Below are positions 18,639-44,921 of a stretch of DNA of 64,000 bases, piece by piece (within the stretch, counting starts at the first letter, position 1; each line of letters starts with the position of its first letter). The notes under the pieces are model-generated. The model was not told the origin of the DNA and made no database searches. It saw only the letters and a program-made list of their open reading frames with translations. The stretch lies in assembly GCF_017348835.2 (NCBI RefSeq), contig NZ_CP071375.1. One strand, given 5' to 3'. The stretch comes from Escherichia coli. Lineage in GTDB: Bacteria > Pseudomonadota > Gammaproteobacteria > Enterobacterales > Enterobacteriaceae. The translations under genes were made by a program, and so were the position numbers.

Positions 18639-18703
18639 AATAAGTCCTCACTATATAAAGATATTCAGTGATGAGATAAATAATCAGTTTATTACGAACG
18701 ATA

Positions 18704-19066: not shown

Positions 19067-19114
19067 TTTGCTGCTCCTCATCATATCGACCCTGCAAGGC
19101 CGATTAGTTTCTCC

Positions 19115-19247: not shown

Positions 19248-19468
19248 GCCAGGACTACACACAGCATAAAGTTGTGGTGCCGGGTGCCCTCCCGGTGCCT
19301 GGCGAAGGTTGCACACCAGGCGGGTGGGTATCCACAGAAGGTCGACTGTCAGCCTCAACCTTAACCCGCGTGCGCTGAGCCGCATTCACCACAACGCTAA
19401 GGATTCTCTCTGGTTGAAAATACTTAGCTGTTATGTGCCTGCTTTTAGCCACATCAGGCGAGGTGGAC

Positions 19469-19522
19469 CTGGTTATTCCCCAACAACAAGGATTCGGTTA
19501 ATCTGGATATCCCCAACAACAA
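19469..19522 (+). repeat. two tandem ~20-nt direct repeats just upstream of the 19537 ORF
   Basis: ctggttattccccaacaacaa (19469-19489) and ctggatatccccaacaacaa (19503-19522), period about 33 nt. Confidence 0.6.
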
Positions 19523-19536
19523 TAAGAGTATTCAAT

Positions 19537-20052: not shown

Positions 20053-20090
20053 ATTACTACTGTTGTGGATATCCAGATTGTTAAAGAGCT

Positions 20091-20114
20091 AAGCGTCCTG
20101 TAGGGCGCTTTTTT
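20091..20114 (+). terminator. rho-independent terminator of the 19537-20052 gene
   Basis: Stem aagcgtcc/gggcgctt with tgta loop, then T6. Confidence 0.6.
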
Positions 20115-20280
20115 GTTGCTAACGAATCATCCTGGACTTCATATGCCCCAGGCGGCTACTTCGTGGGCGTCCTGCCTGTTCGTTTTTGACATTTACTGAC
20201 TGCTTACGACACATGCACCGTGTTGCAACCAGATTTTGTTGTAATCCTGTAGTTGGTCTGGAACAAAAGATAAAATTAAA

Positions 20281-20317
20281 TTGCGAGATATGCAAGCGAT
20301 ATTTGCGAGGTATGCAA
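20281..20317. promoter_or_regulatory. OL-like operator pair with candidate leftward promoter
   Basis: 15-mers TTGCGAGATATGCAA (20281-20295) and TTGCGAGGTATGCAA (20303-20317) share TTGC-N7-GCAA with sites in the cI-cro intergenic region; minus strand carries TTGCAT / 17 nt / TATCTT. Confidence 0.5.
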
Positions 20318-20330
20318 ATTTATAGGTAGT

Positions 20331-20351
20331 AAAAAGCCACCTTTCGGTGGC
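20331..20351 (-). terminator. rho-independent terminator after the cI-like gene
   Basis: Hairpin gccacc-tttc-ggtggc (20336-20351) followed on the minus strand by TTTTT (20331-20335). Confidence 0.6.
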
Positions 20352-20371
20352 CGATGGATGGGATATTGAGG

Positions 20372-21064
20372 TTAATTATGTCTCTTAAGGGTTTGCGACT
20401 GACTGATTAAGACCTTTCCAAAGACCATGAATCGGTGTTCGTTTTCGCTAGTAATTCCCCATTCACGGTAAATCTGGTTATCAGAAATCACCAGCAGTTT
20501 GTCAGGAATCATTTGAAGTCTTTTAACGTATATTTTGTCATCAAAACCAAAGACATATATACCATCACCATCAAACTGATTGATGCTGACATCAACGAAG
20601 ATGAGATCTCCTGGCTCAATGGTTGGACACATACTGTCCCCACGAACGTTGATAACTTTGATGTGATTGGCTGGTCGTCCGCCGAACATTGATACAGCAT
20701 TATCAGTTCTGTATTCGATGGCATGAATCACATCAATGACATCACCGCCCTGGATAAGGCCATTTCCCGCACTGGCACTGATATCCAGCATTTCAATACG
20801 GAACACATCCTTCACCTGCGCAACATCCTCATTATTACTGTTTTTATATACAGTATTACTTTTGTGGGCAGAGGTAAAGAGATCAGCAATATCAACACCT
20901 AAGCTCTTGGCAATATTACTCAGTGTTTGTTCGGTAAATTGTTTTTGCTTACCCGTTTCTAAGCGCGAGATGTTCGCCGCATCTACTCCTATTGCTTCAG
21001 CGAGATCGGCGATTTTCATGTTCTTCGCTTGGCGAAGTTGTCTGACTCGGTTTCCTATGTTCAT
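20372..21064 (-). CDS. cI: CI-like phage repressor (HTH_XRE plus S24 LexA-like peptidase domain)
   Basis: 230-aa; N-terminal HTH (RVRQLRQAKNMKIADLAEAIGVDAANISRLETGK), C-terminal GDSM serine and VKR lysine; divergent from a cro-like gene. Confidence 0.85.
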   Translation of the reverse strand: MNIGNRVRQLRQAKNMKIADLAEAIGVDAANISRLETGKQKQFTEQTLSNIAKSLGVDIADLFTSAHKSNTVYKNSNNEDVAQVKDVFRIEMLDISASAGNGLIQGGDVIDVIHAIEYRTDNAVSMFGGRPANHIKVINVRGDSMCPTIEPGDLIFVDVSINQFDGDGIYVFGFDDKIYVKRLQMIPDKLLVISDNQIYREWGITSENEHRFMVFGKVLISQSQTLKRHN

Positions 21065-21161
21065 GCGTTTATTACATTTCTTTATTGCGTGATAAGCAAA
21101 TCAACTTGCGCAAAATAATTGCGTGAAATAACATGCATAACGCGCAATATTTGGAGGGCAT
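21065..21161. promoter_or_regulatory. OR-like operator/promoter region between cI and cro
   Basis: Repeated TTGCG/CGCAA half-sites; 15-mers TTGCGTGATAAGCAA (21085-21099) and ATGCATAACGCGCAA (21133-21147); RBS ggaggg before cro. Confidence 0.55.
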
Positions 21162-21422
21162 ATGCAATCACCATTACGAAATGTGCGTAAGGCGCATGGT
21201 TTCACTTTGCAGCATGTTGCTGCGGGTGTTCAAGTCAATCCAGCGACGTTGAGTCGTATTGAGAGGCTGGAGCAGATTCCATCTATCGAGCTTGCAGAAC
21301 GTTTAGCCAATTTTTTTAAGGGTGAAGTCAGCGAAATGCAGATTCTTTATCCGGCACGTTTTCAATCTAGCCAAAACCAGAATGGGTTTAAACCACAGGA
21401 ACAGGAGGTGAACCGTGGGTAA
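21162..21422 (+). CDS. cro: Cro-like HTH regulator
   Basis: 86-aa HTH_XRE protein (FTLQHVAAGVQVNPATLSRIER) divergent from cI. Confidence 0.75.
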   Translation: MQSPLRNVRKAHGFTLQHVAAGVQVNPATLSRIERLEQIPSIELAERLANFFKGEVSEMQILYPARFQSSQNQNGFKPQEQEVNRG

Positions 21423-21966
21423 GCATCACTGGAAAGTAGAAAAACAGCCTGAGTGTTACGTGAAAGCTGTCAGAAAAACTATCGCAGCGTTGCCGGGGGG
21501 GTACGCTGAAGCTGCTGACTGGCTGGATGTAACAGAGAACGCATTATTTAACCGCCTTCGTGCCGATGGCGATCAGATTTTCCCGCTGGGATGGGCAATG
21601 ATTTTGCAACGTGCTGGTGGAACTCACTTCATTGCTGACGCTGTGGCGCAGTCTGCAAATGGCGTCTTTGTGTCTCTTCCTGATGTCGAGGATGTGGACA
21701 ACGCCGATATCAACCAACGCCTGCTGGAAGTCATTGAACAGATCGGCAGTTATTCAAAACAGATTCGTTCAGCAATTGAAGACGGTGTAGTGGAACCGCA
21801 TGAGAAGACAGCAATTAACGATGAGCTGTACCTCTCAATTTCGAAGCTGCAGGAGCATGCAGCACTGGTCTACAAAATCTTTTGCGTTTCAGAAAGTAGT
21901 GACGCCCGCGAGTGTGCAGCTCCGGGCGCCGTGGCGTGTCGTGACTGTGGAGAAACTAACGCATGA
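21415..21966 (+). CDS. phage regulatory protein, possibly CII (CP76)-like
   Basis: 183-aa ORF directly after cro with overlapping start; family assignment from position and recalled similarity only. Confidence 0.4.
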
Positions 21967-22301
21967 ACAGTTTAACAACACACTACCGTCGCTCGCAACT
22001 GATTGCGCTTCCTGTACCGGGTGGAAAAGCGAAGGTGGAGTATTGCTATGCAGTAAATGTACCAGGTGACAGGGAAATTGTAACCCACAGCTTTGCAGAG
22101 TGGGCTGTGGGTGATTTCAACCGGCAGAAGGAGACAGTCCTTTGCGACAAGTTAACCGCTGGTTCAAAGATCACTACGGAGTGCCCGTCAGAGTCATTCG
22201 TTGGGAGCCGGAAACACAACGGGTTATCTACCTCCGTGAAGGCTATGAGCATGAGTGCTTCAGCCCGCTCGAACAGTTTCGTCGTAAATTCAGGGAAATA
22301 G
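21963..22301 (+). CDS. hypothetical ORF in a region with three overlapping protein-like frames
   Basis: ATGA coupling to upstream gene; C-terminal half looks non-coding while frame +2 carries protein-like sequence with no ATG; see findings. Confidence 0.3.
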
Positions 22302-22310
22302 AGGTCGGTC

Positions 22311-23252
22311 ATGAGCACTAAATTAACCGGCTATGTATGGGATGGTTGCGCTGCGTCAGGCATGAAATTATCCAGCGTGGCAATTATGGCCCGCCTGGCT
22401 GATTTCAGTAATGACGAAGGTGTGTGCTGGCCATCAATTGAAACCATTGCCCGTCAGATTGGCGCGGGGATGAGTACCGTCAGAACGGCTATCGCACGGC
22501 TGGAAGCAGAAGGCTGGTTAACGCGTAAGGCGCGTCGCCAGGGTAACCGCAATGCGTCGAATGTTTATCAGCTTAACGTTGCGAAGCTTCAGGCAGCGGC
22601 ATTTTCTCAACTGTCAGATTCTGACCCGTCAAAATCTGACGCATCAAAATCTGACCCGTCAAAATTTGATGCGTCGAAATCTGGCAAAAAAGCGGGTTTT
22701 CACCCGTCAGAATCTGGCGGGGATCCGTCAGTAAAATCAAAACATGATCCGTCAGATAAAAAAACTTCTCGTCCGGACGCTTCGCAACCGGACACGCAGA
22801 AGGCTGAACAGGAGTTTTTAACTCGCCATCCTGATGCGGTTGTATTCAGCCCTAAAAAGCGCCAGTGGGGAACGCAGGATGATTTGACCTGCGCACAGTG
22901 GCTCTGGAAAAAAATCATCGCCCTGTACGAGCAGGCCGCCGAATGTGACGGCGAGGTGGTTCGTCCCAAAGAACCGAACTGGACAGCCTGGGCAAACGAA
23001 ATTCGCCTGATGTGTGTGCAGGATGGTCGTACTCACAAACAAATCTGCGAGATGTACAGCCGCGTCAGCCGCGATCCGTTCTGGTGCCGTAACGTGCTCA
23101 GCCCGTCGAAGCTGCGGGAAAAATGGGATGAGCTTTCCCTGCGCTTATCGCCGTCCGTCAGCACGTACACCGAAAAACGCGAAGACCCGTACTTCAAAGC
23201 CAGTTACGACAACGTGGACTACAGCCAGATCCCGGCAGGATTCAGGGGGTGA
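22311..23252 (+). CDS. phage replication initiator (O-like, N-terminal HTH)
   Basis: 313-aa; N-terminal winged-helix/HTH_36-like region (MSTVRTAIARLEAEGWL), internal iteron-encoded linker; follows cro/cII. Confidence 0.7.
   Translation: MSTKLTGYVWDGCAASGMKLSSVAIMARLADFSNDEGVCWPSIETIARQIGAGMSTVRTAIARLEAEGWLTRKARRQGNRNASNVYQLNVAKLQAAAFSQLSDSDPSKSDASKSDPSKFDASKSGKKAGFHPSESGGDPSVKSKHDPSDKKTSRPDASQPDTQKAEQEFLTRHPDAVVFSPKKRQWGTQDDLTCAQWLWKKIIALYEQAAECDGEVVRPKEPNWTAWANEIRLMCVQDGRTHKQICEMYSRVSRDPFWCRNVLSPSKLREKWDELSLRLSPSVSTYTEKREDPYFKASYDNVDYSQIPAGFRG
22606..22760. repeat. iteron-like direct repeats inside the replication gene (candidate ori)
   Basis: Four tandem 15-nt units tgacccgtcaaaatc / tgacgcatcaaaatc / tgacccgtcaaaatt / tgatgcgtcgaaatc (22622-22681), then degenerate ccgtcag units and an A-rich tract. 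Confidence 0.5.
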
Positions 23253-23743
23253 TCATGAGTCTTTTGAATGACGTTCAGAAATTCATTGAAGCCCATCCGG
23301 GCTGTACTTCCGGAGACATTGCGGATGCTTTTGCAGGTTACTCACGGCAGCGCGTTCTGCAGTCAGCAAGCAAGTTACGTCAGAGTGGGCGTGTGGCTCA
23401 CCGTTGTGAAGGAGATACACACAGACATTTCCCGCGCCTGACTGAGAGAGCGCAGGATCCGGAACCACAACCAGTTCGTGAAACCAGACCTGTGCGCAAT
23501 TTCTATGTCGGCACTAACGACCCGCGGGTGATTTTGTGCCTGACCCGCCAGGCGGAAGAACTGGAGTCCAGGGGCTTATACCGTCGTGCTGCAACGGTGT
23601 GGATGGCGGCATTCCGTGAAAGCCACTCCCAGCAAGAGCGAAACAATTTTCTTGCGCGTCGTGAGCGGTGTTTACGGAAAAGCAGCAAGCGCGCTGTATC
23701 GGGTGAAGAGTGGTATCTGTCAGGGAATTACGTGGGGGCTTAA
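23249..23743 (+). CDS. hypothetical prophage protein with PerC-like motif
   Basis: 164-aa ORF, ATGA-coupled to the replication gene; segment EELESRGLYRRAATVWMAAF resembles PerC-family activators (recalled). Confidence 0.4.
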   Translation: MIMSLLNDVQKFIEAHPGCTSGDIADAFAGYSRQRVLQSASKLRQSGRVAHRCEGDTHRHFPRLTERAQDPEPQPVRETRPVRNFYVGTNDPRVILCLTRQAEELESRGLYRRAATVWMAAFRESHSQQERNNFLARRERCLRKSSKRAVSGEEWYLSGNYVGA

Positions 23744-24069
23744 TGACGACGTTAACTCAATGCCAGCAGCAGGTGCTGGATATGCTGATTTCTTACCAGA
23801 AAGAACGTGGCTTCCCGCCAACCAATCAGGAGGTGGCTACCATGCTGGGATACCGTTCAGTGAATGCAGCGGTGGAGCATCTTCGCGCACTGGAGAAAAA
23901 AGGCGTCATCACGATAAAGCGTGGCGTGGCCCGGGGCATCACGCTTCATACCGCGGTGAAGGACGACGACAGCGAGGTGGCCGGGATTATCCGCGCACTG
24001 CTTGCTGGTGAGGAAAACGCCAGGCTGCGTGCAACCCACTGGTTACATGAGAGGGGCCTGAAAGTATGA
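23743..24069 (+). CDS. LexA N-terminal DNA-binding-domain-like protein (no peptidase domain)
   Basis: 108-aa product from ATG 23743; winged-helix similarity to LexA DBD (LTQCQQQVLDMLISYQKERGFPPTNQEVATMLGYRSVNAAVEHLRALEKKGVI). Confidence 0.55.
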   Translation: MTTLTQCQQQVLDMLISYQKERGFPPTNQEVATMLGYRSVNAAVEHLRALEKKGVITIKRGVARGITLHTAVKDDDSEVAGIIRALLAGEENARLRATHWLHERGLKV

Positions 24070-24455
24070 AGCTGATCCTGCCTTTTCCGCCCAGCGTGAA
24101 CACGTACTGGCGACACCCCAACAAAGGGGCGTTTGCTGGTAAGAGCCTGATAAGCGCGGCGGGGCGAAAATTCCAGAGCGCGGCGTGCGCAGCAATAGTT
24201 GAGCAGTTACGTCGTCTGCCGAAACCAACGTCGGCACCTGCTTCAGTGGAGATCGTGTTGTTTCCTCCGGATAACAGGATCCGCGATCTGGACAACTATA
24301 ACAAGGCGCTGTTTGACGCCCTGACCCACGCGGGGGTGTGGGAAGACGACAGTCAGGTGAAAAGAATGCTGGTGGAGTGGGGACCGGTTATCCCGGAAGG
24401 GAAGGTCGAGATCACTATCAGTAAGTACGAGAAAACGGCGGGTGCAGCTGCCTGA
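24066..24455 (+). CDS. rusA: RusA-family Holliday junction resolvase
   Basis: 129-aa; RusA motifs including DLDN and acidic catalytic residues. Confidence 0.8.
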   Translation: MKLILPFPPSVNTYWRHPNKGAFAGKSLISAAGRKFQSAACAAIVEQLRRLPKPTSAPASVEIVLFPPDNRIRDLDNYNKALFDALTHAGVWEDDSQVKRMLVEWGPVIPEGKVEITISKYEKTAGAAA

Positions 24456-24474
24456 TCAAGAGGAGAAACGAAGT

Positions 24475-25284
24475 ATGAATAATCTGATGGTCATTGATGG
24501 TATTGAAGTTCGTCGTGATGCTTATGGGCGTTACAGCCTGAACGATCTGCATCGCGCAGCAGTAGCATCTGGTGCAAATGCCAGAACCAAGGAGCCAGGA
24601 AAGTTTCTTTCCAGCCAACAAACTGTTGAGCTTGTTCATGAATTAACCAACACCCAGAATTTGGGTGTTGACCCGGTGAGTGTGATTCATGGGGGAAATG
24701 AACGGGGAACGTATGTCTGTAAGGAACTGGTGTATGCCTATGCAATGTGGATCAGCCCGTCATTCCATCTGAAGGTGATCCGTACTTTCGATATGGTAAC
24801 CAGCGCGCCGGAAAAGTTATCCGGACAGGTTGCTGACAAGATGCAGGCTGGCGTGATTCTGCTGGACTTTATGCGCCGGGAGTTAAATCTGTCTAACTCA
24901 TCTGTGCTTGGGGCCTGTCAGAAACTCCAGGAGGCTGTTGGCTTACCGAATCTGGCACCGCGCTATGCCATTGATGCACCTGCTGACGCGCCTGATGGCT
25001 CAAGCCGCCCGACGCTGTCGCTGAGTGCACTGCTGAAGCAGTATGGTATCCGCCTGACGGCTAATCAGGCATATCACCAGATGGCGAAGCTGGGGATCGT
25101 TGAACAACGCGAACGATACAGCCGTACCGCGATTAACAACATCAAAAAATTCTGGTCGCTGACAGCGAAAGGTTGCATGTTCGGCAAGAACATCACCAGT
25201 CCCGCAAATCCGCGCGAGACGCAGCCGCATTTCTTCGAATCCCGATTCCCTGAGCTGTTAAAGCTGCTCGATACCGTTCATTGA
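24475..25284 (+). CDS. KilA-N domain protein (antirepressor-like)
   Basis: 269-aa from ATG 24475 with RBS aggag; N-terminal KilA-N/APSES-like domain. Confidence 0.65.
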   Translation: MNNLMVIDGIEVRRDAYGRYSLNDLHRAAVASGANARTKEPGKFLSSQQTVELVHELTNTQNLGVDPVSVIHGGNERGTYVCKELVYAYAMWISPSFHLKVIRTFDMVTSAPEKLSGQVADKMQAGVILLDFMRRELNLSNSSVLGACQKLQEAVGLPNLAPRYAIDAPADAPDGSSRPTLSLSALLKQYGIRLTANQAYHQMAKLGIVEQRERYSRTAINNIKKFWSLTAKGCMFGKNITSPANPRETQPHFFESRFPELLKLLDTVH

Positions 25285-25285
25285 G

Positions 25286-26281
25286 GTGAACGTGAGAGCG
25301 CTACTGACCCCCGAGATTGCCCCGCGTATGGGGATCGTATTGTTCAGACCCGGTTCAGAGCTGATGCCCCTGTTTATGCAGGGGCGTGTCCTGCTGGAGC
25401 CTGAGCCGGAACGTTATTCATCTTTTGCCAGTGGTGCCGTTCCGGCTGCATCACAACCGCTGGCGGATGATCCTGCCGTTCGGGCCGTGTTCCGCAATGA
25501 GGCAGTGATCCGTCGTGCTGGTGGCGTGGAATGTCTTGAAAGCTGGTTACTTCGTGAAAAAGGCTGCCAGTGGCCTCATTCCGACTGGCACAGCGAGAAC
25601 ATGACCACAATGCGACACGCGCCGGGCGCAATCCGTCTGTGCTGGCACTGCGATAACCAACTGCGCGATCAGTTCACGGAACGGCTGGAATCAATGGCAA
25701 CGGATAACTGTGCCCGCTGGGTGTTGTCTGTTGTGCGTCGGGATCTCGGTTTTGATGACAGTCACGTTGTGACAATGCCGGAACTGTGCTGGTGGCTGAT
25801 TCGTAATGATCTGGCGGATACCTTACCGGAAAGTGCAGCCCGTAAGGCACTGAGATTACCGAAGCCTTTTGTGCCGTCTGTCACCCGGGAAAGTGACCTG
25901 GTGCCTTCGGTTCCTGCCACCAGCATCATCCAGAATAAAGCGAAAAAGGTGCTGGCGCTGAAAGTGGATCCGGAGTCGCCGGACTCTTTTATGTTACGCC
26001 CAAAACGTCGCCGCTGGGTTAATGAAAAGTACACGCGATGGGTTAAGACGCAGCCGTGCGCATGTTGTGGAAAACCTGCTGATGATCCCCACCACCTGAT
26101 AGGCCACGGTCAGGGTGGAATGGGGACAAAAGCGCATGACCTCTTTGTGTTGCCTTTGTGCAGAAAGCATCACGACGAGCTGCATGCGGATACTGTGGCA
26201 TTCGAAGAGAAGTATGGCTCCCAGCTGGAGCTGATATTTCGTTTTATCGATCGTGCGCTGGCGATTGGTGTGCTGGCCTGA
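25286..26281 (+). CDS. DUF968-like prophage protein with C-terminal Cys/His (HNH-like) cluster
   Basis: 331-aa; C-terminus [18 protein letters not shown]...CRKHHDELH. Confidence 0.55.
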
Positions 26282-26298
26282 TTTTGTGGAGAAAGTTG

Positions 26299-26682
26299 AT
26301 GCGTGATATTCAGATGGTTCTTGAGCGTTGGGGAGCGTGGGCGGCTAATAATCATGAAGATGTGACTTGGTCGTCCATTGCCGCCGGTTTTAAGGGATTA
26401 ATTCCTTCAAAAGTAAAATCTCGCCCACAATGTTGTGACGATGACGCGATGATCATTTGCGGGTGCATGGCCCGTCTGAAAAAGAACAACAGCGACTTGC
26501 ACGATTTATTAGTAGATTATTATGTAGTCGGTATGACATTCATGTCACTGGCAGGTAAGCATTGCTGCTCTGATGGTTATATCGGGAAAAGGTTACAGAA
26601 GGCTGAGGGCATAATTGAAGGGATGTTAATGGCATTAGATATCCGGTTAGAGATGGATATCGTTGTTAATAACTCTAATTAA
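26299..26682 (+). CDS. quuD: late-gene antiterminator Q (DLP12 quuD-like)
   Basis: 127-aa product from ATG 26299 ([22 protein letters not shown]...); position before the lysis cassette. Confidence 0.75.
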
Positions 26683-26715
26683 TATGCCAATTGTTTACTA
26701 AAAATTATTAAAAAT

Positions 26716-26733
26716 GGGGCGTTGCAACGCCCC
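26716..26733. terminator. 18-bp perfect palindrome hairpin between Q and nmpC
   Basis: ggggcgttg/caacgcccc; T-rich tract on the minus-strand side. Confidence 0.4.
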
Positions 26734-26829
26734 CAAAAATAAAGGGTAATATATAACAGAAGGTTTATATAGTTAGAAGCAAGGTTGTGCTCCTAAAGGA
26801 AGTGGCTTGAGGGAGCCACTTATATGTTG

Positions 26830-26860
26830 GGGAGGCAAAGCCTCCCGCAACATATCTTTT
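26830..26860 (+). terminator. candidate tR'-like terminator downstream of Q
   Basis: Stem ggaggc/gcctcc (26830-26846) followed by TTTT at 26857-26860. Confidence 0.35.
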
Positions 26861-26870
26861 AGTAATCAAA

Positions 26871-27953
26871 TTAGAACTGGTAAACCATACCTACAGCAAC
26901 GATATCATCGGTAGCAACGCCAGATGCTTTCGTGAAATCGCTCTTATCAATCAGGTTGATTTTGTAATCAACAAAAGTGGACATATTTTTGTTGAAGTAA
27001 TAGGTTGCACCTACATCAATATATTCAACCAGGTCCTGATCACCCCACGCACCCAAGTCTTTTCCTTTAGATTGCAGGTAAGCAACGGACGGACGCAGAC
27101 CGAAGTCGAACTGATATTGTGCAACTACTTCGAAGTTTTGTGCTTTGTTGGCAATATGGTTATTACCAAAAACAGTCATGTTCTGGGTTTCAGAATAGGT
27201 GGTAGCCAGATAGATGTTGTTCGCATCATATTTCAGACCAGCTGCCCATACTTCAGCATTTTGACCAGATGCATTCAGGCTGTTGTTACCGTAGATAACC
27301 TGATTATTAGTGCGGTCAGATTTAGCATAGGTTGCACCTACACCGAATCCTTCATACTCATACGTAGTGGAGAAACCGAAACCATCACCATTAGCTTCAG
27401 TTACGTCAGTGCGGTCATTTTTACCCTGATACTGAGCAGCAAAGTTCAGACCATCAACCAGACCAAAGAAGTCGTTGTTACGATAAGTTGCAACACCAGT
27501 GGTGCGACCAGTCATGAACACATCTGTTTGGGTCCAGGTATCGCCACCGAATTCTGGCAGAACGTCAGTCCACGCACCGATGTCATATGCTACACCGTAG
27601 TTACGGCCGTAATCGATTGAGCCGTAGTCCCCGAATTTCAGGCCTGCAAATGCAAGACGGGTTTTGTCTTTGGAGGAGCCTTGAGATTCAGCGCGGTTGC
27701 CTTTGAATTCATATTCCCACTGACCGAAACCAGTCAGTTGATCGTTGATTTGGGTTTCACCTTTGAAGCCAAGACGGGCATAAGTAGTATCACCATCATC
27801 TGCATCATTAGAGGAGAAGTAGTGCTTGGCATTAACTTTCCCATATAGATCCAGCTTGTTACTGTCTTTATTATAAATTTCAGCTGCCTGAGCAGACATC
27901 GCCATCAGTACTGATGCGGCTACAGCAGAAATTGCCACTGTTAATTTTTTCAT
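26871..27953 (-). CDS. nmpC: outer membrane general porin (NmpC/OmpD-like), intact
   Basis: 360-aa 16-strand porin with signal peptide and C-terminal ...VGMVYQF. Confidence 0.9.
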
Positions 27954-28541
27954 CGTGAGCCCTTTTTTTTGAACTATTATTAAAAAATGATGTCACTGCG
28001 CGATAAATATTCATCTAATCAATGTGATTATTTCAAGATGTAAGTTTTAGTTTCTCATTTAATTTGTGAGGTAGATCTCTATTTTTATCTGAACTTTTTC
28101 TATCGAAACCTATTTATGGCTCTTATTTGAACAAAAATAAACCTATTAGCTAATTTATATTAATGGCTGTTATTTATGGAGGTTCTATAATTCGGCGGTT
28201 TAATTTAAATCAACTAAAAATAACGGCGGAAATTATTTGTAGGATATTTGTTGAGGTTTTCTTATGTATTTGTGGTGGTGTTTTGAACACTCGGTAGCAT
28301 TCTCATAAATATCATTCAGTGGTTTACGTACGTAAAAAATTGGTTATGCTGTTAAGAGTGGTTACTTCGTCACACAGCTTAAACCCGCCGTCGAGCTGGT
28401 TTTTCCATTTTTTGAGTCTCGATATTAGCTGATAACTCAATACCTGAGTTATTCACTGACTCCGAGTCTGTTACGTTTCTGCTTTTTTGCGATACGTTGT
28501 ATTCCCTCAATTTACACCCGCTTTGTCTGCGAGGTGGGGTT

Positions 28542-28757
28542 ATGAAATCCATGGATAAGTTAACAACGGGTGTCGCCTATGGCACCTCAGCAGGTAGTGC
28601 CGGTTACTGGTTTTTACAGCTGCTCGATAAAGTTACGCCCTCACAGTGGGCAGCAATAGGTGTGCTGGGTAGCCTGGTATTTGGCCTGCTGACGTACCTG
28701 ACAAACCTTTATTTCAAGATTAAAGAAGATAAGCGCAAGGCTGCGAGAGGTGAATAA
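28542..28757 (+). CDS. essD: pinholin (phage 21 S-like) with dual start
   Basis: 71-aa with MKSMDK dual-start motif (ATG 28542 and 28551), RBS gaggtgggg, two TM segments. Confidence 0.85.
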
Positions 28758-29254
28758 TGCCTCCATCATTACGAAAAGCCGTTGCTGCTGCTATTGGTGG
28801 CGGAGCAATTGCTATAGCATCAGTGTTAATCACTGGCCCAAGTGGTAACGATGGTCTGGAAGGTGTCAGCTACATACCATACAAAGATATTGTTGGTGTA
28901 TGGACTGTATGTCACGGGCATACAGGAAAAGACATCATGCTCGGTAAAACGTATACCAAAGCAGAATGCAAAGCACTCTTGAATAAAGACCTTGCCACTG
29001 TCGCCAGACAAATTAACCCGTACATCGAAGTCGATATACCGGAAACAACGCGCGGCGCTCTTTACTCATTCGTTTACAACGTGGGTGCTGGCAATTTCAG
29101 AACATCGACGCTTCTTCGCAAAATAAACCAGGGCGATATCAAAGGCGCATGTGATCAGCTACGTCGCTGGACATACGCTGGCGGTAAGCAATGGAAAGGC
29201 CTGATGACTCGCCGTGAGATTGAGCGTGAAATCTGTTTGTGGGGTCAGCAATGA
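28757..29254 (+). CDS. rrrD: SAR endolysin (lysozyme)
   Basis: 165-aa; N-terminal signal-anchor-release segment, T4-lysozyme-like catalytic region. Confidence 0.85.
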
Positions 29255-29712
29255 ACAGAGTAACCGCGATTATCTCCGCTCTGGTTATCTGCATCATCGT
29301 CTGCCTGTCATGGGCTGTTAATCATTACCGTGATAACGCCATTACCTACAAAGCCCAGCGCGACAAAAATGCCAGAGAACTGAAGCTGGCGAACGCCACC
29401 ATTACTGACATGCAGCAGCGCCAGCGTGATGTTGCTGCACTGGATGAAAAATACACGAAGGAGTTAGCTAATGCGAAAGCTGAAAATGATGCTCTGCGTG
29501 ATGATGTTGCCGCTGGTCGTCGTCGGTTGCACATCAAAGCAGTCTGTCAGTCAGTGCGTGAAGCCACCACCGCCTCCGGCGTGGATAATGCAGCCTCCCC
29601 CCGACTGGCAGACACCGCTGAACGGGATTATTTCACCCTCAGAGAGAGGCTGATCACTATGCAAAAACAACTGGAAGGAACCCAGAAGTATATTAATGAG
29701 CAGTGCAGATAG
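29251..29712 (+). CDS. rzpD: spanin inner-membrane subunit (Rz)
   Basis: 153-aa from ATG 29251 overlapping the endolysin stop; N-terminal TM plus coiled-coil. Confidence 0.8.
29471..29653 (+). CDS. rzoD: spanin outer-membrane lipoprotein (Rz1) embedded in Rz in +1 frame
   Basis: 60-aa with lipobox (LVVVGC) and Pro-rich segment, wholly inside Rz. Confidence 0.75.
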
Positions 29713-29743
29713 AGCTGCCCATATCGATGGGCAACTCATGCAA

Positions 29744-30037
29744 TTATTGTGAGCAATACACACGCGCTTCCAGCGGAGTATAAATGCCTAAAGTAATAAA
29801 ACCGAGCAATCCATTTACGAATGTTTGCTGGGTTTCTGTTTTAACAACATTTTCTGCGCCGCCACAAATTTTGGCTGCATCAACAGTTTTCTCCTGTCCA
29901 ATTCCCGAAACGAAGAAGTGATGGGTGATGGTTTCCTTTGGTGTTACTGCTGTCGGTTTGTTTCCAACAGTAAACGTCTGTTGAGCACATCCTGTAATAA
30001 GCATTGCCAGAGCGGCAGAAAACAACATTTTTTTCAT
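29744..30037 (-). CDS. bor: Bor lipoprotein
   Basis: 97-aa from ATG 30035-30037 (MKKMLFSAALAMLITGC lipobox). Confidence 0.85.
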   Translation of the reverse strand: MKKMLFSAALAMLITGCAQQTFTVGNKPTAVTPKETITHHFFVSGIGQEKTVDAAKICGGAENVVKTETQQTFVNGLLGFITLGIYTPLEARVYCSQ

Positions 30038-30399
30038 CTTATTATCCTGCATTGTTAAAAACGGCAGAATCCTATGTGACAACAATTAAACGATAATTAA
30101 ATGGATTGATGAAAATTAAAACTATATAGGTGTACGCTCAGACTATTGGAGGAAGTTGGGGACACTCAGAATCCTGTGGAATGAAATAAACCGGTCTATC
30201 CGTCTATTACCCTTTTAGCTGCGCTGTATCGTCGCCGTATTCCCGCATTAACCATGACCGTAGCCCGACGGGGAATTCCTTCTGCGTGAGTGTGCGGGAA
30301 TAATCAAAAACGATGCACACCGGGTTTTACTGTGCTGACAGACGCAGGGTTACCCTCATAGTCGCTTTTCCGGTGCGATGGTGGAAGAAACCGGGATGT

Positions 30400-30594
30400 T
30401 TATTCATCATCACTTTGGATTGATGTATATGCTCTCTTTTCTGACGTTAGTCTCCGACGGCAGGCTTCAATGACCCAGGCTGAGAAATTCCCGGACCCTT
30501 TTTGCTCAAGAGCGATGTTAATTTGTTCAATCATTTGGTTAGGAAAGCGGATGTTGCGGGTTGTTGTTCTGCGGGTTCTGTTCTTAGTTGACAT
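30400..30594 (-). CDS. DUF3950-family small protein (YlcI-like)
   Basis: 64-aa basic N-terminus; between bor and cos. Confidence 0.55.
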   Translation of the reverse strand: MSTKNRTRRTTTRNIRFPNQMIEQINIALEQKGSGNFSAWVIEACRRRLTSEKRAYTSIQSDDE

Positions 30595-30793
30595 GAGGTT
30601 GCCCCGTATTCAGTGTCGCTGATTTGTATTGTCTGAAGTTGTTTTTACGTTAAGTTGATGCAGATCAATTAATACGATACCTGCGTCATAATTGATTATT
30701 TGACGTGGTTTGATGGCGTAGATGCACGTTGTGACATGTAGATGATAATTATTATCATTTTGCGGGTCCTTTCCGGCGATCCGACAGGTTACG

Positions 30794-30805
30794 GGGCGGC
30801 GACCT
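30794..30805. other. cosN cohesive-end site
   Basis: ...ccgacaggttacg | GGGCGGCGACCT cgcgggttttcgctatttatgaaaattttccgg matches the lambda genome ends as recalled; terminase genes follow. Confidence 0.85.
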
Positions 30806-30982
30806 CGCGGGTTTTCGCTATTTATGAAAATTTTCCGGTTTAAGGCGTTTCCGTTCTTCTTCGTCGTAACTTAATGTTTTTATTTAAAACACCCTCTGAA
30901 AAGAAAGGAAACGACAGGTGCTGAAAACGAGCTTTTTGGCCTCTGTCGTTTCCTTTCTCTGTTTTTGTCCGTGGAATGAACA

Positions 30983-31502
30983 ATGGAAGTCAACAAAAAG
31001 CAGCTGGCTGACATTTTCGGCGCGAGTATCCGTACCATTCAGAACTGGCAGGAGCAGGGAATGCCCGTTCTGCGGGGTGGTGGCAAGGGTAATGAAGTGC
31101 TTTATGACTCTGCCGCCGCCATAAAATGGTATGCCGAAAGGGATGCTGAAATTGAGAACGAAAAGCTGCGCCGGGAAGTTGAAGAACTGCGGCAGGCCAG
31201 CGAGACAGATCTCCAGCCAGGGACTATTGAGTACGAACGCCATCGACTTACGCGTGCGCAGGCCGACGCACAGGAGCTGAAAAATGCCAGAGACTCCGCT
31301 GAAGTGGTGGAAACCGCATTCTGTACTTTCGTGCTGTCGCGGATCGCAGGTGAAATTGCCAGTATTCTCGACGGGATCCCCCTGTCGGTGCAGCGGCGTT
31401 TTCCGGAACTGGAAAACCGACATGTTGATTTCCTGAAACGGGATATCATCAAAGCCATGAACAAAGCAGCCGCGCTGGATGAACTGATACCGGGGTTGCT
31501 GA

Positions 31503-31528
<26 letters not shown>
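30983..31528 (+). CDS. nu1: terminase small subunit (Nu1)
   Basis: 181-aa, near-identical to lambda Nu1 as recalled. Confidence 0.9.
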
Positions 31529-35209
<3,681 letters not shown>

Positions 35210-35229
<20 letters not shown>

Positions 35230-36529
35230 TCTCCCGCATATTGCCAGCATGGCTTTTAATGAGCCGCTGATGCTTGAACCCGCCTATGCGCGGGTTTTCT
35301 TTTGTGCGCTTGCAGGCCAGCTTGGGATCAGCCGCCTGACGGATGCAGTATCCGGCGACAGCCTGACTGCCGGAGAGGCACCCGCGGCGCTGGCGTTATC
35401 CGGTGATGATGACGGACCACGACAGGCCCGGAGTTATCAGGTCATGAACGGCATCGCCGTGCTGCCGGTGTCCGGTACGCTGGTCAGCCGGACGCGGGCG
35501 CTGCAGCCGTATTCGGGGATGACCGGTTACAACGGCATTATCGCCCGTCTGCAACAGGCTGCCAGCGACCCGATGGTGGACGGCATTCTGCTCGATATGG
35601 ACACACCGGGCGGAATGGTGGCGGGAGCATTTGACTGTGCTGACATCATCGCCCGTGTGCGTGACATAAAACCGGTATGGGCGCTGGCCAACGACATGAA
35701 CTGCAGTGCAGGTCAGCTGCTTGCCAGCGCCGCCTCCCGGCGTCTGGTCACGCAGACCGCCCGGACAGGCTCCATCGGCGTCATGATGGCTCACAGTAAT
35801 TACGGTGCTGCCCTGGAGAAACAGGGCGTGGAAATCACGCTGATTTACAGCGGCAGCCATAAGGTGGATGGCAACCCCTACAGCCATCTACCGGGTGATG
35901 TCCGGGAAACACTGCAGTCCCGGATGGATGCAACCCGCCGGATGTTTGCGCAGAAGGTGTCGGCATATACCGGCCTGTCCGTGCAGGCTGTGCTGGATAC
36001 CGAGGCTGCAGTGTACAGCGGTCAGGAGGCCATTGATGCCGGACTGGCTGATGAACTTGTCAACAGCACCGATGCGATCACCGTTATGCGTGATGCACTG
36101 GATGCACGTAAATCCCGTCTCTCAGGAGGGCGAATGACCAAAGAGACTCAATCAACAACTGTTTCAGCCACTGCTTCGCAGGCTGACGTTACTGGCGTGG
36201 TGCCAGCGATGGAGGGCGAAAACGCCAGCGCGGCGCAGCCGGACGTGAACGCGCAGATCACCGCTGCGGTTGCGGCAGAAAACAGCCGCATTATGGGGAT
36301 CCTCAACTGTGAGGAGGCTCACGGACGCGAAGAACAGGCCCGCGTGCTGGCAGAAACCCCCGGTATGACCGTGGAAACGGCCCGCCGCATTCTGGCCGCA
36401 GCACCACAGAGTGCACAGGCGCGCAGTGATACTGCGCTGGATCGTCTGATGCAGGGGGCACCGGCACCGCTGGCTGCAGGTAACCCGGCATCTGATGCCG
36501 TTAACGATTTGCTGAACACACCAGTGTAA
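35210..36529 (+). CDS. C: head protease/scaffold (gpC, Nu3 in-frame C-terminal part)
   Basis: 439-aa from GTG 35210 (VTAELRNLPHIASMAFNEP...); S49 peptidase-like. Confidence 0.85.
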
Positions 36530-36538
36530 GGGATGTTT

Positions 36539-36871
36539 ATGACGAGCAAAGAAACCTTTACCCATTACCAGCCGCTGGGCAACAGTGACCCGGCTCATAC
36601 CGCAACCGCGCCCGGCGGATTGAGTGCGAAAGCGCCTGCAATGACCCCGCTGATGCTGGACACCGCCACCCGTAAGCTGGTTGCGTGGGATGGCACCACC
36701 GACGGTGCTGCCGTTGGCATTCTGGCGGTTGCTGCTGACCAGACCAGCACCACGCTGACGTTCTACAAGTCCGGCACGTTCCGTTATGAGGATGTGCTCT
36801 GGCCGGAGGCTGCCAGCGATGAGACGAAAAAACGGACCGCGTTTGCCGGAACGGCAATCAGCATCGTTTAA
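36539..36871 (+). CDS. D: head decoration protein D
   Basis: 110-aa [27 protein letters not shown]... Confidence 0.9.
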
Positions 36872-36926
36872 CCTTACCCTTCATCACTAAAGGCCGCCTG
36901 TGCGGCTTTTTTTACGGGATTTTTTT

Positions 36927-37952
36927 ATGTCGATGTACACAACCGCCCAGCTGCTGGCGGCAAATGAGCAGAAATTTAAGTTTGATCCGCTGTTTCTGCG
37001 TCTCTTTTTCCGTGAGAGCTATCCCTTCACCACGGAGAAAGTCTATCTCTCACAAATTCCGGGACTGGTAAACATGGCGCTGTACGTTTCGCCGATTGTT
37101 TCCGGTGAGGTTATCCGCTCCCGTGGCGGCTCCACCTCTGAATTTACGCCGGGATATGTCAAACCCAAGCATGAAGTGAATCCGCAGATGACCCTGCGTC
37201 GCCTGCCGGATGAAGATCCACAGAATCTGGCGGACCCGGCTTACCGCCGCCGTCGCATCATCCTGCAGAACATGCGAGACGAAGAGCTGGCCATTGCTCA
37301 GGTCGAAGAGATGCAGGCAGTTTCTGCCGTGCTTAAGGGCAAATACACCATGACCGGTGAAGCCTTCGATCCGGTTGAAGTGGATATGGGCCGCAGTGTG
37401 GCGAACAACATCACGCAGTCCGGCGGTACGGAGTGGAGCAAGCGTGACAAGTCCACGTATGACCCGACCGACGATATCGAAGCCTACGCGCTGAACGCCA
37501 GCGGTGTGGTGAATATCATCGTGTTTGATCCGAAAGGCTGGGCGCTGTTCCGTTCCTTCAAAGCCGTCAAGGAGAAGCTGGATACCCGTCGCGGCTCTCA
37601 TTCCGAGCTGGAGACAGCGGTAAAAGACCTGGGCGAAGCGGTGTCCTATAAGGGGATGTATGGCGATACGGCGATCGTCGTGTATTCCGGACAGTACGTG
37701 GAAAACGACGTCAAAAAGAACTTCCTTCCGGACAACACGATGGTGCTGGGGAACACTCAGGCACGCGGTCTGCGCACCTATGGCTGCATTCAGGATGCGG
37801 ACGCACAGCGCGAAGGTATTAACGCCTCTGCCCGCTACCCGAAAAACTGGGTGACCACCGGCGATCCGGCGCGTGAGTTCACCATGATTCAGTCAGCACC
37901 GCTGATGCTGCTGGCTGACCCTGATGCGTTCGTGTCCGTACAACTGGCGTAA
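36927..37952 (+). CDS. E: major capsid protein E
   Basis: 341-aa from ATG 36927 (MSMYTTAQLLAANEQKF...). Confidence 0.95.
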   Translation: MSMYTTAQLLAANEQKFKFDPLFLRLFFRESYPFTTEKVYLSQIPGLVNMALYVSPIVSGEVIRSRGGSTSEFTPGYVKPKHEVNPQMTLRRLPDEDPQNLADPAYRRRRIILQNMRDEELAIAQVEEMQAVSAVLKGKYTMTGEAFDPVEVDMGRSVANNITQSGGTEWSKRDKSTYDPTDDIEAYALNASGVVNIIVFDPKGWALFRSFKAVKEKLDTRRGSHSELETAVKDLGEAVSYKGMYGDTAIVVYSGQYVENDVKKNFLPDNTMVLGNTQARGLRTYGCIQDADAQREGINASARYPKNWVTTGDPAREFTMIQSAPLMLLADPDAFVSVQLA

Positions 37953-37993
37953 TCATGGCCCTTCGGGGCCATTTTCTCTCTGTGGAGGAGTCC

Positions 37994-38389
37994 ATGACGA
38001 AAGATGAACTGATTGCCCGTCTTCAGGTGCTGGGTGAGCAACTGAACCGTGATGTCAGCCTGACGGGGACGAAAGAAGAACTGGCACTCCGTGTGGCAGA
38101 GCTGGAAGAGGAGCTTGATGACACGGATGACGCTGCCGGTCAGGACACATCTGTCAGCCCGGAAAATGCGCTGACCGGACATGAAAATGAGGTTGTATCA
38201 GCGCAGCCGGATACCGTGACTGATACGGCTGATCTGGTCACGGTTGTGGCACTGGTGACGCTGCATACTGATGCACTTCACGCCACGCGGGATGAGGCTG
38301 TGGCATTTGTGCTGCCGGGAACGGCGTTCCGTGTCTCTGCCGGTGTGGCAGCTGAAATGACAGAGCGCGGCCTGGCCAGAATGCAATAA
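37994..38389 (+). CDS. FI: DNA packaging protein FI
   Basis: 131-aa from ATG 37994 with RBS ggaggag. Confidence 0.8.
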   Translation: MTKDELIARLQVLGEQLNRDVSLTGTKEELALRVAELEEELDDTDDAAGQDTSVSPENALTGHENEVVSAQPDTVTDTADLVTVVALVTLHTDALHATRDEAVAFVLPGTAFRVSAGVAAEMTERGLARMQ

Positions 38390-38400
38390 CGGGAGGCGCT

Positions 38401-38775
38401 GTGGCTGATTTCGATAACCTGTTCGATGCTGCCATTGCCTGCGCCGATGAAACGATACGCGGGTACATGGGAACGTCAGCCACCATGACATCCGGTGAGC
38501 AGTCCGGTGCTGTGATACGTGGTGTTTTTGATGACCCTGAAAATATCAGCTATGCCGGACAGGGCGTGCGCGTTGAAGGCTCCAGCCCGTCCCTGTTTGT
38601 CCGGACTGATGATGTGCGGCAGCTGCGGCGCGGCGACACGCTGACCATCGGTGAGGAAAACTTCTGGATAGACCGGATTTCGCCGGATGATGGCGGAAGC
38701 TGTCATCTCTGGCTTGGGCGGGGCGTACCGCCTGCCGTTAACCGTCGCCGCTGGAAGGGGGATGTATGGCCATAA
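38401..38775 (+). CDS. FII: head-tail connector FII
   Basis: 124-aa, GTG start. Confidence 0.85.
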   Translation: MADFDNLFDAAIACADETIRGYMGTSATMTSGEQSGAVIRGVFDDPENISYAGQGVRVEGSSPSLFVRTDDVRQLRRGDTLTIGEENFWIDRISPDDGGSCHLWLGRGVPPAVNRRRWKGDVWP

Positions 38776-39344
38776 AAGGTCTTGAGCAGGCCGTTGAAAA
38801 CCTCAGCCGTATCAGCAGAACGGCGGTGCCCGGTGCCGCCGCAATGGCCATTAACCGCGTTGCTTCATCCGCGATATCGCAGTCGGTGTCACAGGTTGCC
38901 CGTGAGACAAAGGTACGCCGGAAACTGGTAAAGGAAAGGGCCAGGCTGAAAAGGGCCACGGTCAAAAATCCGCAGGCCAGAATCAAGGTTAACCGGGGGG
39001 ATTTGCCCGTAATCAAGCTGGGTAATGCGCGGGTTGTCCTTTCGCGCCGCAGGCGTCGTAAAAAGGGGCAGCGTTCATCCCTGAAAGGTGGCGGCAGCGT
39101 GCTTGTGGTGGGTAACCGTCGTATTCCCGGCGCGTTTATTCAGCAACTGAAAAATGGCCGGTGGCATGTTATGCAGCGTGTGGCCGGGAAAAACCGTTAC
39201 CCCATTGATGTGGTGAAAATCCCGATGGCGGTGCCGCTGACCACGGCGTTTAAACAAAATATTGAGCGGATACGGCGTGAACGTCTTCCGAAAGAGCTGG
39301 GCTATGCGCTGCAGCATCAACTGAGGATGGTAATAAAGCGATGA
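38766..39344 (+). CDS. Z: tail completion protein Z
   Basis: 192-aa lambda Z-like. Confidence 0.85.
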   Translation: MAIKGLEQAVENLSRISRTAVPGAAAMAINRVASSAISQSVSQVARETKVRRKLVKERARLKRATVKNPQARIKVNRGDLPVIKLGNARVVLSRRRRRKKGQRSSLKGGGSVLVVGNRRIPGAFIQQLKNGRWHVMQRVAGKNRYPIDVVKIPMAVPLTTAFKQNIERIRRERLPKELGYALQHQLRMVIKR

Positions 39345-39736
39345 AACATACTGAACTCCGTGCAGCCGTACTGGATGCACTGGAGAAGCATGACACCGGG
39401 GCGACGTTTTTTGATGGTCGCCCCGCTGTTTTTGATGAGGCGGATTTTCCGGCAGTTGCCGTTTATCTCACCGGCGCTGAATACACGGGCGAAGAGCTGG
39501 ACAGCGATACCTGGCAGGCGGAGCTGCATATCGAAGTTTTCCTGCCTGCTCAGGTGCCGGATTCAGAGCTGGATGCGTGGATGGAGTCCCGGATTTATCC
39601 GGTGATGAGCGATATCCCGGCACTGTCAGAGTTGATCACCAGTATGGTGGCCAGTGGCTATGACTACCGACGCGACGATGATGCGGGCCTGTGGAGTTCA
39701 GCCGATCTGACTTATGTCATTACCTATGAAATGTGA
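39341..39736 (+). CDS. U: tail terminator protein U
   Basis: 131-aa lambda U-like. Confidence 0.85.
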
Positions 39737-39743
39737 GGACGCT

Positions 39744-40484
39744 ATGCCTGTACCAAATCCTGTAATGCCGGTGAAAGGTGCCGGGACCACCCTGTGGGTT
39801 TATAAGGGGAGCGGTGACCCTTATGCGAATCCGCTTTCAGACGTTGACTGGTCGCGTCTGGCAAAAGTTAAAGACCTGACGCCCGGCGAACTGACCGCTG
39901 AGTCCTATGACGACAGCTATCTCGATGATGAAGATGCGGACTGGACTGCGACCGGGCAGGGGCAGAAATCAGCCGGAGATACCAGCTTCACGCTGGCGTG
40001 GATGCCCGGAGAGCAGGGGCAGCAGGCGCTGCTGGCGTGGTTTAATGAAGGTGATACCCGTGCCTATAAAATCCGCTTCCCGAACGGCACGGTCGATGTG
40101 TTCCGTGGCTGGGTCAGCAGTATCGGTAAAGCGGTGACGGCGAAGGAAGTGATCACCCGCACGGTGAAGGTCACCAATGTGGGACGTCCGTCGATGGCAG
40201 AAGATCGCAGCACGGTCACAGCGGCAACCGGCATGACCGTGACGCCTGCCAGCACCTCGGTGGTGAAAGGGCAGAGCACCACGCTGACCGTGGCATTCCA
40301 GCCGGAAGGCGCAACCGACAAGAGCTTCCGTGCGGTGTCTGCGGATAAAACAAAAGCCACCGTGTCGGTCAGTGGTATGACCATCACCGTGAAAGGTGTT
40401 GCTGCAGGCAAGGTCAACATTCCGGTCGTATCCGGTAATGGTGAACTTGCTGCGGTTGCAGAAATCACTGTCACCGACAGTTAA
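39744..40484 (+). CDS. V: major tail tube protein V
   Basis: 246-aa from ATG 39744; C-terminal Ig-like domain. Confidence 0.9.
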
Positions 40485-40499
40485 TCCGGAGAGTCAGCG

Positions 40500-40922
40500 A
40501 TGTTCCTGAAAACCGAATCATTTGAACATAACGGCGTGACCGTCACGCTTTCTGAACTTTCAGCCCTGCAGCGTATTGAGCATCTCGCCCTGATGAAACG
40601 GCAGGCAGAACAGGCGGAGTCAGACAGCAACCGGAAGTTTACAGTGGAAGACGCCATCAGAACCGGTGCTTTTGTGGTGGCGATGTCCCTGTGGCATAAC
40701 CATCCGCAGAAGACAAAGCAGCCTTCCATGAATGAAGCCGTTAAACAGATTGAGCAGGAAGTGCTTACCACCTGGCCCACAGAGGCAATTTCTCATGCTG
40801 AAAACGTGGTGTACCGGCTGTCCGGTATGTATGAGTTTGTGGTGAATGATGCCCCTGAACAGGCAGAGGACGCCGGGCCTGCAGAGCCTGTTTCTGCGGG
40901 AAAGTGTTCGACGGTGAGCTGA
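40500..40922 (+). CDS. G: tail assembly chaperone G
   Basis: 140-aa lambda G-like. Confidence 0.85.
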   Translation: MFLKTESFEHNGVTVTLSELSALQRIEHLALMKRQAEQAESDSNRKFTVEDAIRTGAFVVAMSLWHNHPQKTKQPSMNEAVKQIEQEVLTTWPTEAISHAENVVYRLSGMYEFVVNDAPEQAEDAGPAEPVSAGKCSTVS

Positions 40923-41338
40923 GTTTTGCCCTGAAACTGGCGCGCGAGATGGGGCGACCCGACTGGCGTGCCATGCTTGCCGGGATGTCATCCACGGAGT
41001 ATGCCGACTGGCACCGCTTTTACAGTACCCATTATTTTCATGATGTTCTGCTGGATATGCACTTTTCCGGGCTGACGTACACCGTGCTCAGCCTGTTTTT
41101 CAGCGATCCGGATATGCATCCGCTGGATTTCAGTCTGCTGAACCGGCGTGAGGCTGACGAAGAGCCTGAAGATGATGTGCTGATGCAGAAAGCGGCAGGG
41201 CTTGCCGGAGGCGTCCGCTTTGGCCCGGACGGGAATGAAGTTATCCCCGCTTCCCCGGATGTGGCGGACATGACGGAGGATGACGTAATGCTGATGACAG
41301 TATCAGAAGGGATCGCAGGAGGAGTCCGGTATGGCTGA
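40500..41338 (+). CDS. T: G-T fusion product made by programmed -1 ribosomal frameshift
   Basis: Slippery heptamer G GGA AAG at 40898-40904 near the end of G; the T frame lacks its own start context and continues to 41338. Confidence 0.75.
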
Positions 41339-44916: not shown

Positions 44917-44921
44917 ATCCC

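Follow-up and report, generated by a model that had tools for sequence, protein, structure and literature searches.

A predicted lambda-type cos site and lambda/434-type late genes in a mosaic DLP12-family prophage of Escherichia coli

The stretch of Escherichia coli DNA analysed here (64 kb, hereafter the window) carries at positions 30794-30805 the 12-mer GGGCGGCGACCT, and we hold with high confidence that this sequence belongs to a genuine lambda-type cos which, together with a late module of the lambda/434 type, sits in a mosaic prophage of the DLP12 family. The whole window matches, at 100% identity, the reverse strand of the chromosome of the pig isolate E. coli PE164 (NZ_CP114128.1).

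The 12-mer is found as a single exact copy in the window, on the + strand. Dinucleotide-preserving shuffles of the window gave a mean of 0.02 exact matches, with at least one match in 2 of 100 shuffles, while a search allowing one mismatch is expected to return 0.5 matches by chance. The 12-mer alone is moderately informative, and its surrounding context is decisive: when the joined lambda termini (NC_001416) were compared with the window, 89 bp were perfectly identical (lambda -16 to +72), with scattered substitutions beyond. An earlier note on this DNA had proposed that the cohesive end and its flanks match the lambda termini, and the unique 12-mer inside this perfect match bears that proposal out. 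A chance occurrence of the 12-mer was considered and rejected, given the 0.02 exact matches expected and the position of the site inside 18.5 kb of homology. Using the curated coordinates of the phage 434 record (OL657226) and exact-string searches, the cos subsites were located as follows.

30764-30770, + strand: cosQ heptamer GGGTCCT, exact match to the curated 434 cosQ and to lambda 48473-48479; predicted packaging-termination subsite
30794-30805, + strand: cosN, the same as lambda bases 1-12 and the curated 434 cosN; predicted terminase nicking site
30843-30959, + strand: cosB, made up, going downstream from cosN, of R3, I1, R2 and R1
30843-30858, + strand: R3, identical to lambda 50-65; 434 differs by 1 nt
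30867-30879, + strand: I1 (IHF site), exact match to 434 and lambda
30901-30916, inverted: R2, exact match to 434 and lambda
30944-30959, + strand: R1, exact match to 434 and lambda

All six subsites (cosQ, cosN, R3, I1, R2 and R1) are identical to those of lambda, and cosQ lies about 30 bp upstream of cosN, as a lambda-type cos requires. Between R2 and R1, a 1-bp deletion (lambda G138) is common to the window and to 434, a viable phage. Because of this deletion, the nu1 ATG at 30983 stands 189 nt past the first base of cosN (177 nt from the last) instead of the 190 nt seen in lambda, close to the distance of about 180 bp given in the earlier note. Altogether, the 12-mer is the predicted cosN nicking site of a complete lambda-type cos (cosQ-cosN-cosB).

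The homology with lambda begins at Rz (29251) and crosses cos, rather than starting at cos. In blastn alignments, window 29251-30091 corresponds to lambda 45966-46809 (Rz-bor) at 93.7% identity, the 411 bp immediately left of cos (window 30383-30793) to lambda 48092-48502 at 96.1%, and window 30794-49264 to lambda 1-18474 at 97.6% (18,475 columns, 439 mismatches and 3 gap openings). The alignment ends inside J at 49264 and resumes at 50250, at the stf N-terminus, with 86.5% identity. Lambda alignments altogether cover 95% of 30600-50400, leaving out ~1 kb that comprises lom and the 3' end of J, as well as 52.7% of the prophage and 46.5% of lambda. The earlier note had pointed to a pairwise alignment with lambda (J02459) as the way to examine the near-identity of the structural arm, and the 97.6% found over 30794-49264 agrees with its expectation. 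The genes downstream of cos are the following.

30983-31528, + strand: nu1, terminase; 181 aa, 98.3% amino-acid identity to lambda; Pfam Phage_Nu1 (PF07471), E = 5.5e-101
31503-33428, + strand: A, terminase; 641 aa, 3 substitutions compared to lambda, 99.5% amino-acid identity
33425-38775, + strand: head genes W, B, C/nu3, D, E, FI and FII, all open, with 88-100% amino-acid identity to lambda
38766-46234, + strand: tail genes Z, U, V, G/T, H, M, L, K and I, with 96-100% amino-acid identity to lambda
46295-49708, + strand: J, central tail fibre; 1137 aa, lambda-like from residue 1 to about 985, with a 434-type C-terminal part of about 150 aa (from ~49265)
49778-50377, + strand: lom-like Ail/Lom protein of the 434 type, without a lambda match at the nucleotide level
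50442-53402, + strand: stf, side tail fibre; N-terminus 86.5% identical to lambda orf401, 434-like up to 50863
53402-53986, + strand: tfa

From nu1 to J, the 21 late genes all have open reading frames and encode proteins with 88-100% identity to those of lambda: W, T and K are 100% identical, and FI, which has lost one codon, stands lowest at 87.9%. Nu1 differs from the lambda protein at 3 of 181 residues (V46A, A75T and L132I), and the slippery heptamer of G-T, GGGAAAG, is kept at 40898. In FII (38401-38775, + strand), which encodes the head-tail joining protein, the stop codon is changed from TGA to TGG, adding 7 amino acids and making the gene overlap the start of Z. An apparent oddity of the FII start codon was set aside since lambda also uses GTG there, so that only the stop-codon change is real.

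The earlier note had described the arm as lambda-like through J, which is right from nu1 to most of J, colinear with lambda at 97.6% nucleotide identity, but not for J after residue ~985 nor for lom, which are not of the lambda type. Compared to lambda J, identity is 93-99% as far as residue ~900 and 86% for residues 901-1000; in a per-100-residue profile, the last ~137 residues (1000-1137) are 35-36% identical to lambda and 94-97% identical to 434, while the identity to 434 J is 94-100% along the whole length. For the N-terminal part of stf as well, the 434 match is better than the lambda match. The C-terminus of J is known to set host specificity, and 434 as well as lambda carrying the 434 tail-fibre gene use OmpC (PMC11101478, PMC3509688). 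Since the C-terminus of J is of the 434 type in the window, the predicted receptor of a phage made from this prophage is OmpC rather than LamB.

The prophage that holds these genes is bounded by two copies of a 47-bp repeat derived from argU, and its site is the DLP12 locus. The features at its two ends are listed here.

15043-15089: attL, a 47-bp exact direct repeat corresponding to the 3' part of tRNA-Arg argU (tRNA at 15011-15087, + strand)
15103-16265, - strand: intD-type tyrosine integrase, frameshifted and annotated as a pseudogene in RefSeq
54041-54709, - strand: SAM methyltransferase (ybcY-like), cargo between the tail fibres and attR
55255-56739, - strand: TAP-like alpha/beta hydrolase, 494 aa, at the position of appY in K-12 DLP12; match to PADLOC candidate model C3a206 (3e-55)
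56926-57879, - strand: ompT, inside the 47-bp att repeats
58302-58348: attR, the second copy of the argU-derived repeat

RefSeq places tRNA-Arg argU and intD at the left flank and ompT-envY-ybcH-nfrA at the right flank. The prophage measures 43,306 bp and its predicted excised circle 43,259 bp, which is 89% of the length of lambda and comfortably packageable under the packaging limits of that phage. Cos is internal in the prophage because attP lies between the tail-fibre/cargo end and int, making the integrated map a circular permutation of the virion map. As ompT is inside the att repeats, it is prophage cargo, as in K-12 DLP12; together with the methyltransferase and hydrolase genes, it is also found in the phage record PhiR29_1. 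Just outside attR, envY (~58392-59957) is interrupted by an IS3-family element (~58726-59939) that has a programmed frameshift.

The integrase gene carries the only visible lesion, a 1-bp deletion in an A6 run at nt 217 of the gene (around position 16049), which is the single indel compared to K-12 intD and to the PhiR29_1 int gene. In strain F2_81, which is 99.8% identical, intD is intact (1164 bp), implying either a very recent mutation or an error of homopolymer assembly. The frameshift was therefore not retained as firm evidence of crypticity, since this relative lacks it. The RefSeq annotation of the prophage does not include an excisionase.

The early region of the prophage is a different module, as the earlier note had suggested when it described the late region as joined to a different early region: blastn against lambda returned zero matches anywhere in window 1-29250, and the immunity region is of the SfII type (99.3%). 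The main features between the integrase and cos are given below.

16266-26345: early region of the SfII/SfIV/PhiR29 type, without a lambda nucleotide match and including the leftward yfdT-yfdP genes
20372-21064, - strand: cI-like repressor (Pfam S24 and HTH)
21162-21422, + strand: cro-like gene
21415-21966: ymfL/cII-like gene, in the early region
22311-23252: O-like HTH replication protein, in the early region
26299-30037: late-control/lysis block of the DLP12/434 type (RefSeq annotation), 97.1% and 91.5% identical to K-12 DLP12
26299-26682, + strand: quuD
26871-27953, - strand: porin gene of the nmpC/OmpC type, intact, between Q and the lysis genes and on the opposite strand
28542-28757, + strand: essD, holin
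28757-29254, + strand: rrrD, endolysin
29251-29712, + strand: rzpD, spanin
29744-30037, - strand: iss/bor
30400-30594, - strand: ylcI (DUF3950), just upstream of cos

Over 16266-30793, PhiR29_1 and PhiR29_2 cover 90% at 96.8% identity and the Shigella phages SfII/SfIV about 55% at 97%, while intD and the quuD-porin-lysis genes are 91.5-99% identical to K-12 DLP12; the early region is in turn pieced together from parts of the SfII type and parts of the DLP12 type. It further holds genes for PerC, RusA, KilA-N and DUF968 proteins and for a protein with a LexA DNA-binding domain only. The latter (23743-24069, + strand), encoded in the nin-like region and shared with SfII and PhiR29_1, has 108 residues with the LexA DNA-binding domain (PF01726, 2.9e-19) and lacks the S24 self-cleavage domain; it could act as an uncleavable LexA mimic. 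Another observation concerns a 171-aa ORF (19537-20052, + strand) flanked by the leftward early operon and by the repressor gene and transcribed opposite to both, for which Pfam and PADLOC searches gave zero matches. In lambdoid phages, this slot often holds exclusion or moron genes, and PhiR29_1 carries another gene there. Close to cos, ylcI occupies the same place in 434 and K-12 DLP12, and homologues of ybcV/ybcW (lambdap78/p79), which lambda, K-12 DLP12 and PhiR29_1 carry before cos, are missing from the window, with about 290 bp left (30092-30382) in the same arrangement as in 434.

As for where the late arm comes from, the earlier note had called it essentially lambda, which the 97.6% identity justifies as a description, except that lambda is not a privileged donor, 434 and PhiR29_1 being about equally close. 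In a four-way alignment of the arm, identities were 97.60% for window-lambda, 97.24% for window-434, 97.14% for window-PhiR29_1 and 98.11% for lambda-434, with patches in which the window is closest to PhiR29_1 (37793-38790, 99.6%) or to lambda (41790-45790, H-K, 99.4-99.7%). This patchy identity profile argues for a recombining pool of one structural module rather than for recent descent from lambda. Such a module is also widespread: coverage of 30600-50400 reaches 80% or more in 79 phage records, for the most part with 95-99% identity, and 3002 of 5426 complete E. coli genomes contain at least 80% of the 18.5-kb arm, with some match in 5228. The 247-bp segment from cosQ to nu1 (at least 80%) is found in 3982 of the 5426 genomes, with 2 places per genome as the median and 8 as the maximum. 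According to the model that we propose, the late block from the holin gene to the stf N-terminus would be a lambda/434 module that circulates in E. coli lambdoids by homologous recombination, and it would here have been joined to SfII-type immunity and replication genes and to int and Q-porin-lysis genes of the DLP12 type.

The arm could instead be a direct and recent descendant of lambda, recombined as a lambda late arm onto a foreign early region, and 97.6% over 18.5 kb, the 99.4-99.7% from H to K and an R3 site matching lambda but not 434 do fit such an origin. Yet the 2.4% divergence is spread along the arm, which is as close to 434 and PhiR29_1 and has patches closest to the latter; moreover, the J C-terminus, lom and the cos-proximal arrangement without ybcV/W are 434-like, and comparable arms are held by those 3002 E. 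coli genomes, some of them 99% identical to the arm of the window. We thus regard direct descent from lambda as quite improbable. Lambda DNA often serves as a control in laboratories and in sequencing, which raises the question of an artefact, whether from contaminating control DNA or from a 12-mer arising by chance (one-mismatch matches being expected 0.5 times). The exact-match expectation of 0.02, the identity of 97.6% instead of 100%, the fact that the arm continues into prophage DNA foreign to lambda and into the host flanks, and the recurrence of the same arrangement in independent assemblies at 99-99.8% make the probability of an artefact close to negligible, and contamination by lambda control DNA was rejected for the same departure from 100% identity and the arrangement shared by independent assemblies.

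If the circulating module functions here as its counterpart does in lambda, induction and excision of the prophage would be followed by the formation of concatemers, on which gpNu1 would bind R3, R2 and R1 of cosB while IHF would bend the DNA at I1. By the same analogy, gpA would nick cosN at positions 12 nt apart, packaging would proceed rightward from nu1, and cosQ would assist cutting at the next cos; the product would be a 43,259-bp chromosome whose 5' overhangs read GGGCGGCGACCT. We infer cos cleavage, inducibility and receptor use for this prophage, and consider it rather likely that the copy in PE164 can still produce phage, although this copy, whose intD is frameshifted in the assembly, may fail to excise.

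Could cos and the arm rather be a dead relic, cryptic like the DLP12 element of K-12, with cos serving at most as a recombination substrate for incoming lambdoids? The intD frameshift would fit this explanation, as would the defective remnant that K-12 keeps at the same locus, which retains cos-nohD, and the recombination with lambda at the DLP12 cos that was shown experimentally (PMC3945230). On the other side, the 21 late genes, the terminase genes, the lysis cassette, the repressor, cro and replication genes and Q are all open, the frameshift involves one base of an A-run and does not occur in the 99.8%-identical F2_81, and a colinear relative, PhiR29_1, is deposited as a phage genome in a database record that names a host, which makes it a putative active phage. 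A literature search did not find a PhiR29_1 paper and matched only unrelated Pseudomonas phages named 'PhiR26'. On balance, a dead relic seems unlikely to us. With a broken intD and an intact cos, terminase and full set of structural genes, one may also imagine that upon induction cos is cut in situ and that packaging runs rightward into the ompT-envY-nfrA host DNA, giving particles like lambda-doc or like those of lateral transduction. Such packaging would require another lambda-type cos downstream, oriented the same way, and PE164 contains 6 places matching the arm; we judge it very improbable.

Modular mosaicism of lambdoid phages, the cos-nohD segment of DLP12 and h434 host-range swaps are already known, so that the importance of this prophage is small beyond its correct annotation: it is a textbook case of lambdoid mosaicism with a swap of the receptor-binding tip. 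We propose that it be annotated not as 'phage lambda' but as a near-complete lambdoid of the DLP12 family that carries a lambda-type cos and SfII-type immunity and whose host range is predicted to be of the OmpC type (434-type). The presence of cos and the arm in 55-73% of complete E. coli genomes bears on recombination between incoming lambdoids and resident prophages.

With lambda (NC_001416/J02459), the prophage shares the gene order nu1-A-W-B-C/nu3-D-E-FI-FII-Z-U-V-G/T-H-M-L-K-I-J (97.6% over 18,471 bp), as well as Rz-bor and the 411 bp left of cos (94-96%). In contrast, int/xis, red, N, cI/rex, cro, O/P, nin, Q, S and R of lambda have no nucleotide match in the window, and lambda uses the attB-lambda site while the window prophage is at argU. 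Neither the lambda immunity (cI, cro, OL/OR) nor the LamB-specific C-terminus of J is present. Membership of the species Lambdavirus lambda calls for about 95% nucleotide identity over the full length in ICTV practice, and the prophage does not belong to this species, because only 46.5% of lambda and 52.7% of the prophage are covered.

The longest colinear match is with 434 (OL657226), over 22.3 kb (28551-50863) at 95-97% (94.8% from 28551). It runs through holin-endolysin-spanin-bor-ylcI-cos-nu1...J-lom-stf N-terminus and includes lysis genes of the pinholin/SAR-endolysin type; both phages lack ybcV/ybcW and share the OmpC-type J C-terminus. They differ in that the early region, immunity, int/att and Q of 434, which are lambda-like or 434-specific, are unmatched in the window.

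The cI-cro-cII immunity region of SfII (NC_021857) is 99.3% identical to window 20188-21500, within blastn matches of 98.7% over 20121-23746 and 93.9% over 23743-26345 that end at the start of Q. Beyond this point, SfII has a contractile tail (tail sheath and baseplate), another terminase, gtr O-antigen genes and other lysis genes, and neither the late arm nor the cos of the window is matched in it. The same early module thus appears with a contractile-tail late module in SfII and with a lambda/434 siphovirus module in the window, which is a direct sign of module exchange.

PhiR29_1 and PhiR29_2 (PV340556/7) are colinear with the prophage from att to att (window 15063-58398, 95-99.6%) and share its intD-type integrase, porin, cos-arm, ompT and hydrolase. 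PhiR29_1 differs in the immunity region (window 20188-21386), the stf C-terminus and a few other patches, and has its own dam methyltransferase, ybcV/ybcW and extra right-end genes.

The DLP12 prophage of K-12 (NC_000913, 564755-586056) occupies the same argU site, and its annotated feature likewise starts inside argU. Compared by blastn with MG1655, window 10281-16360 (host flank, argU and intD) is 98.9% identical; the order quuD-nmpC-essD-rrrD-rzpD-borD-ylcI-cos-nohD is kept at 91.5-97.9% nucleotide identity, with 97.9% over window 30383-31810 (ylcI-cos-nohD-aaaD), and the right end with tfaD-ybcY-tfaX and ompT is also shared. K-12 DLP12, in contrast, lacks the 21.7 kb of window 31811-53547, from about codon 103 of A to within tfa, and the 5' end of A (aaaD) is joined directly to tfaD (53548) with a junction overlap of about 3 bp. 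It further differs by a degraded early region (IS3, emrE, ybcK and others), an IS5 in nmpC, the presence of ybcV/ybcW before cos and appY instead of the hydrolase gene. It was previously found that a 3353-bp stretch of DLP12 spanning R, Rz, cos, nu1 and A shares 98% identity with lambda, that this R-Rz-cos-nu1-A segment recombines with lambda, with junctions that cluster at cos, and that lambda hybrids with the DLP12 nu1 are viable (De Paepe et al. 2014, PMC3945230). The viability of such cos-nu1 hybrids is the nearest indirect support for the predicted cleavage of the window cos in vivo. Judging from these alignments, K-12 DLP12 is the same kind of element minus 21.7 kb, and the prophage of the window would give a picture of what K-12 DLP12 was before losing these head and tail genes.
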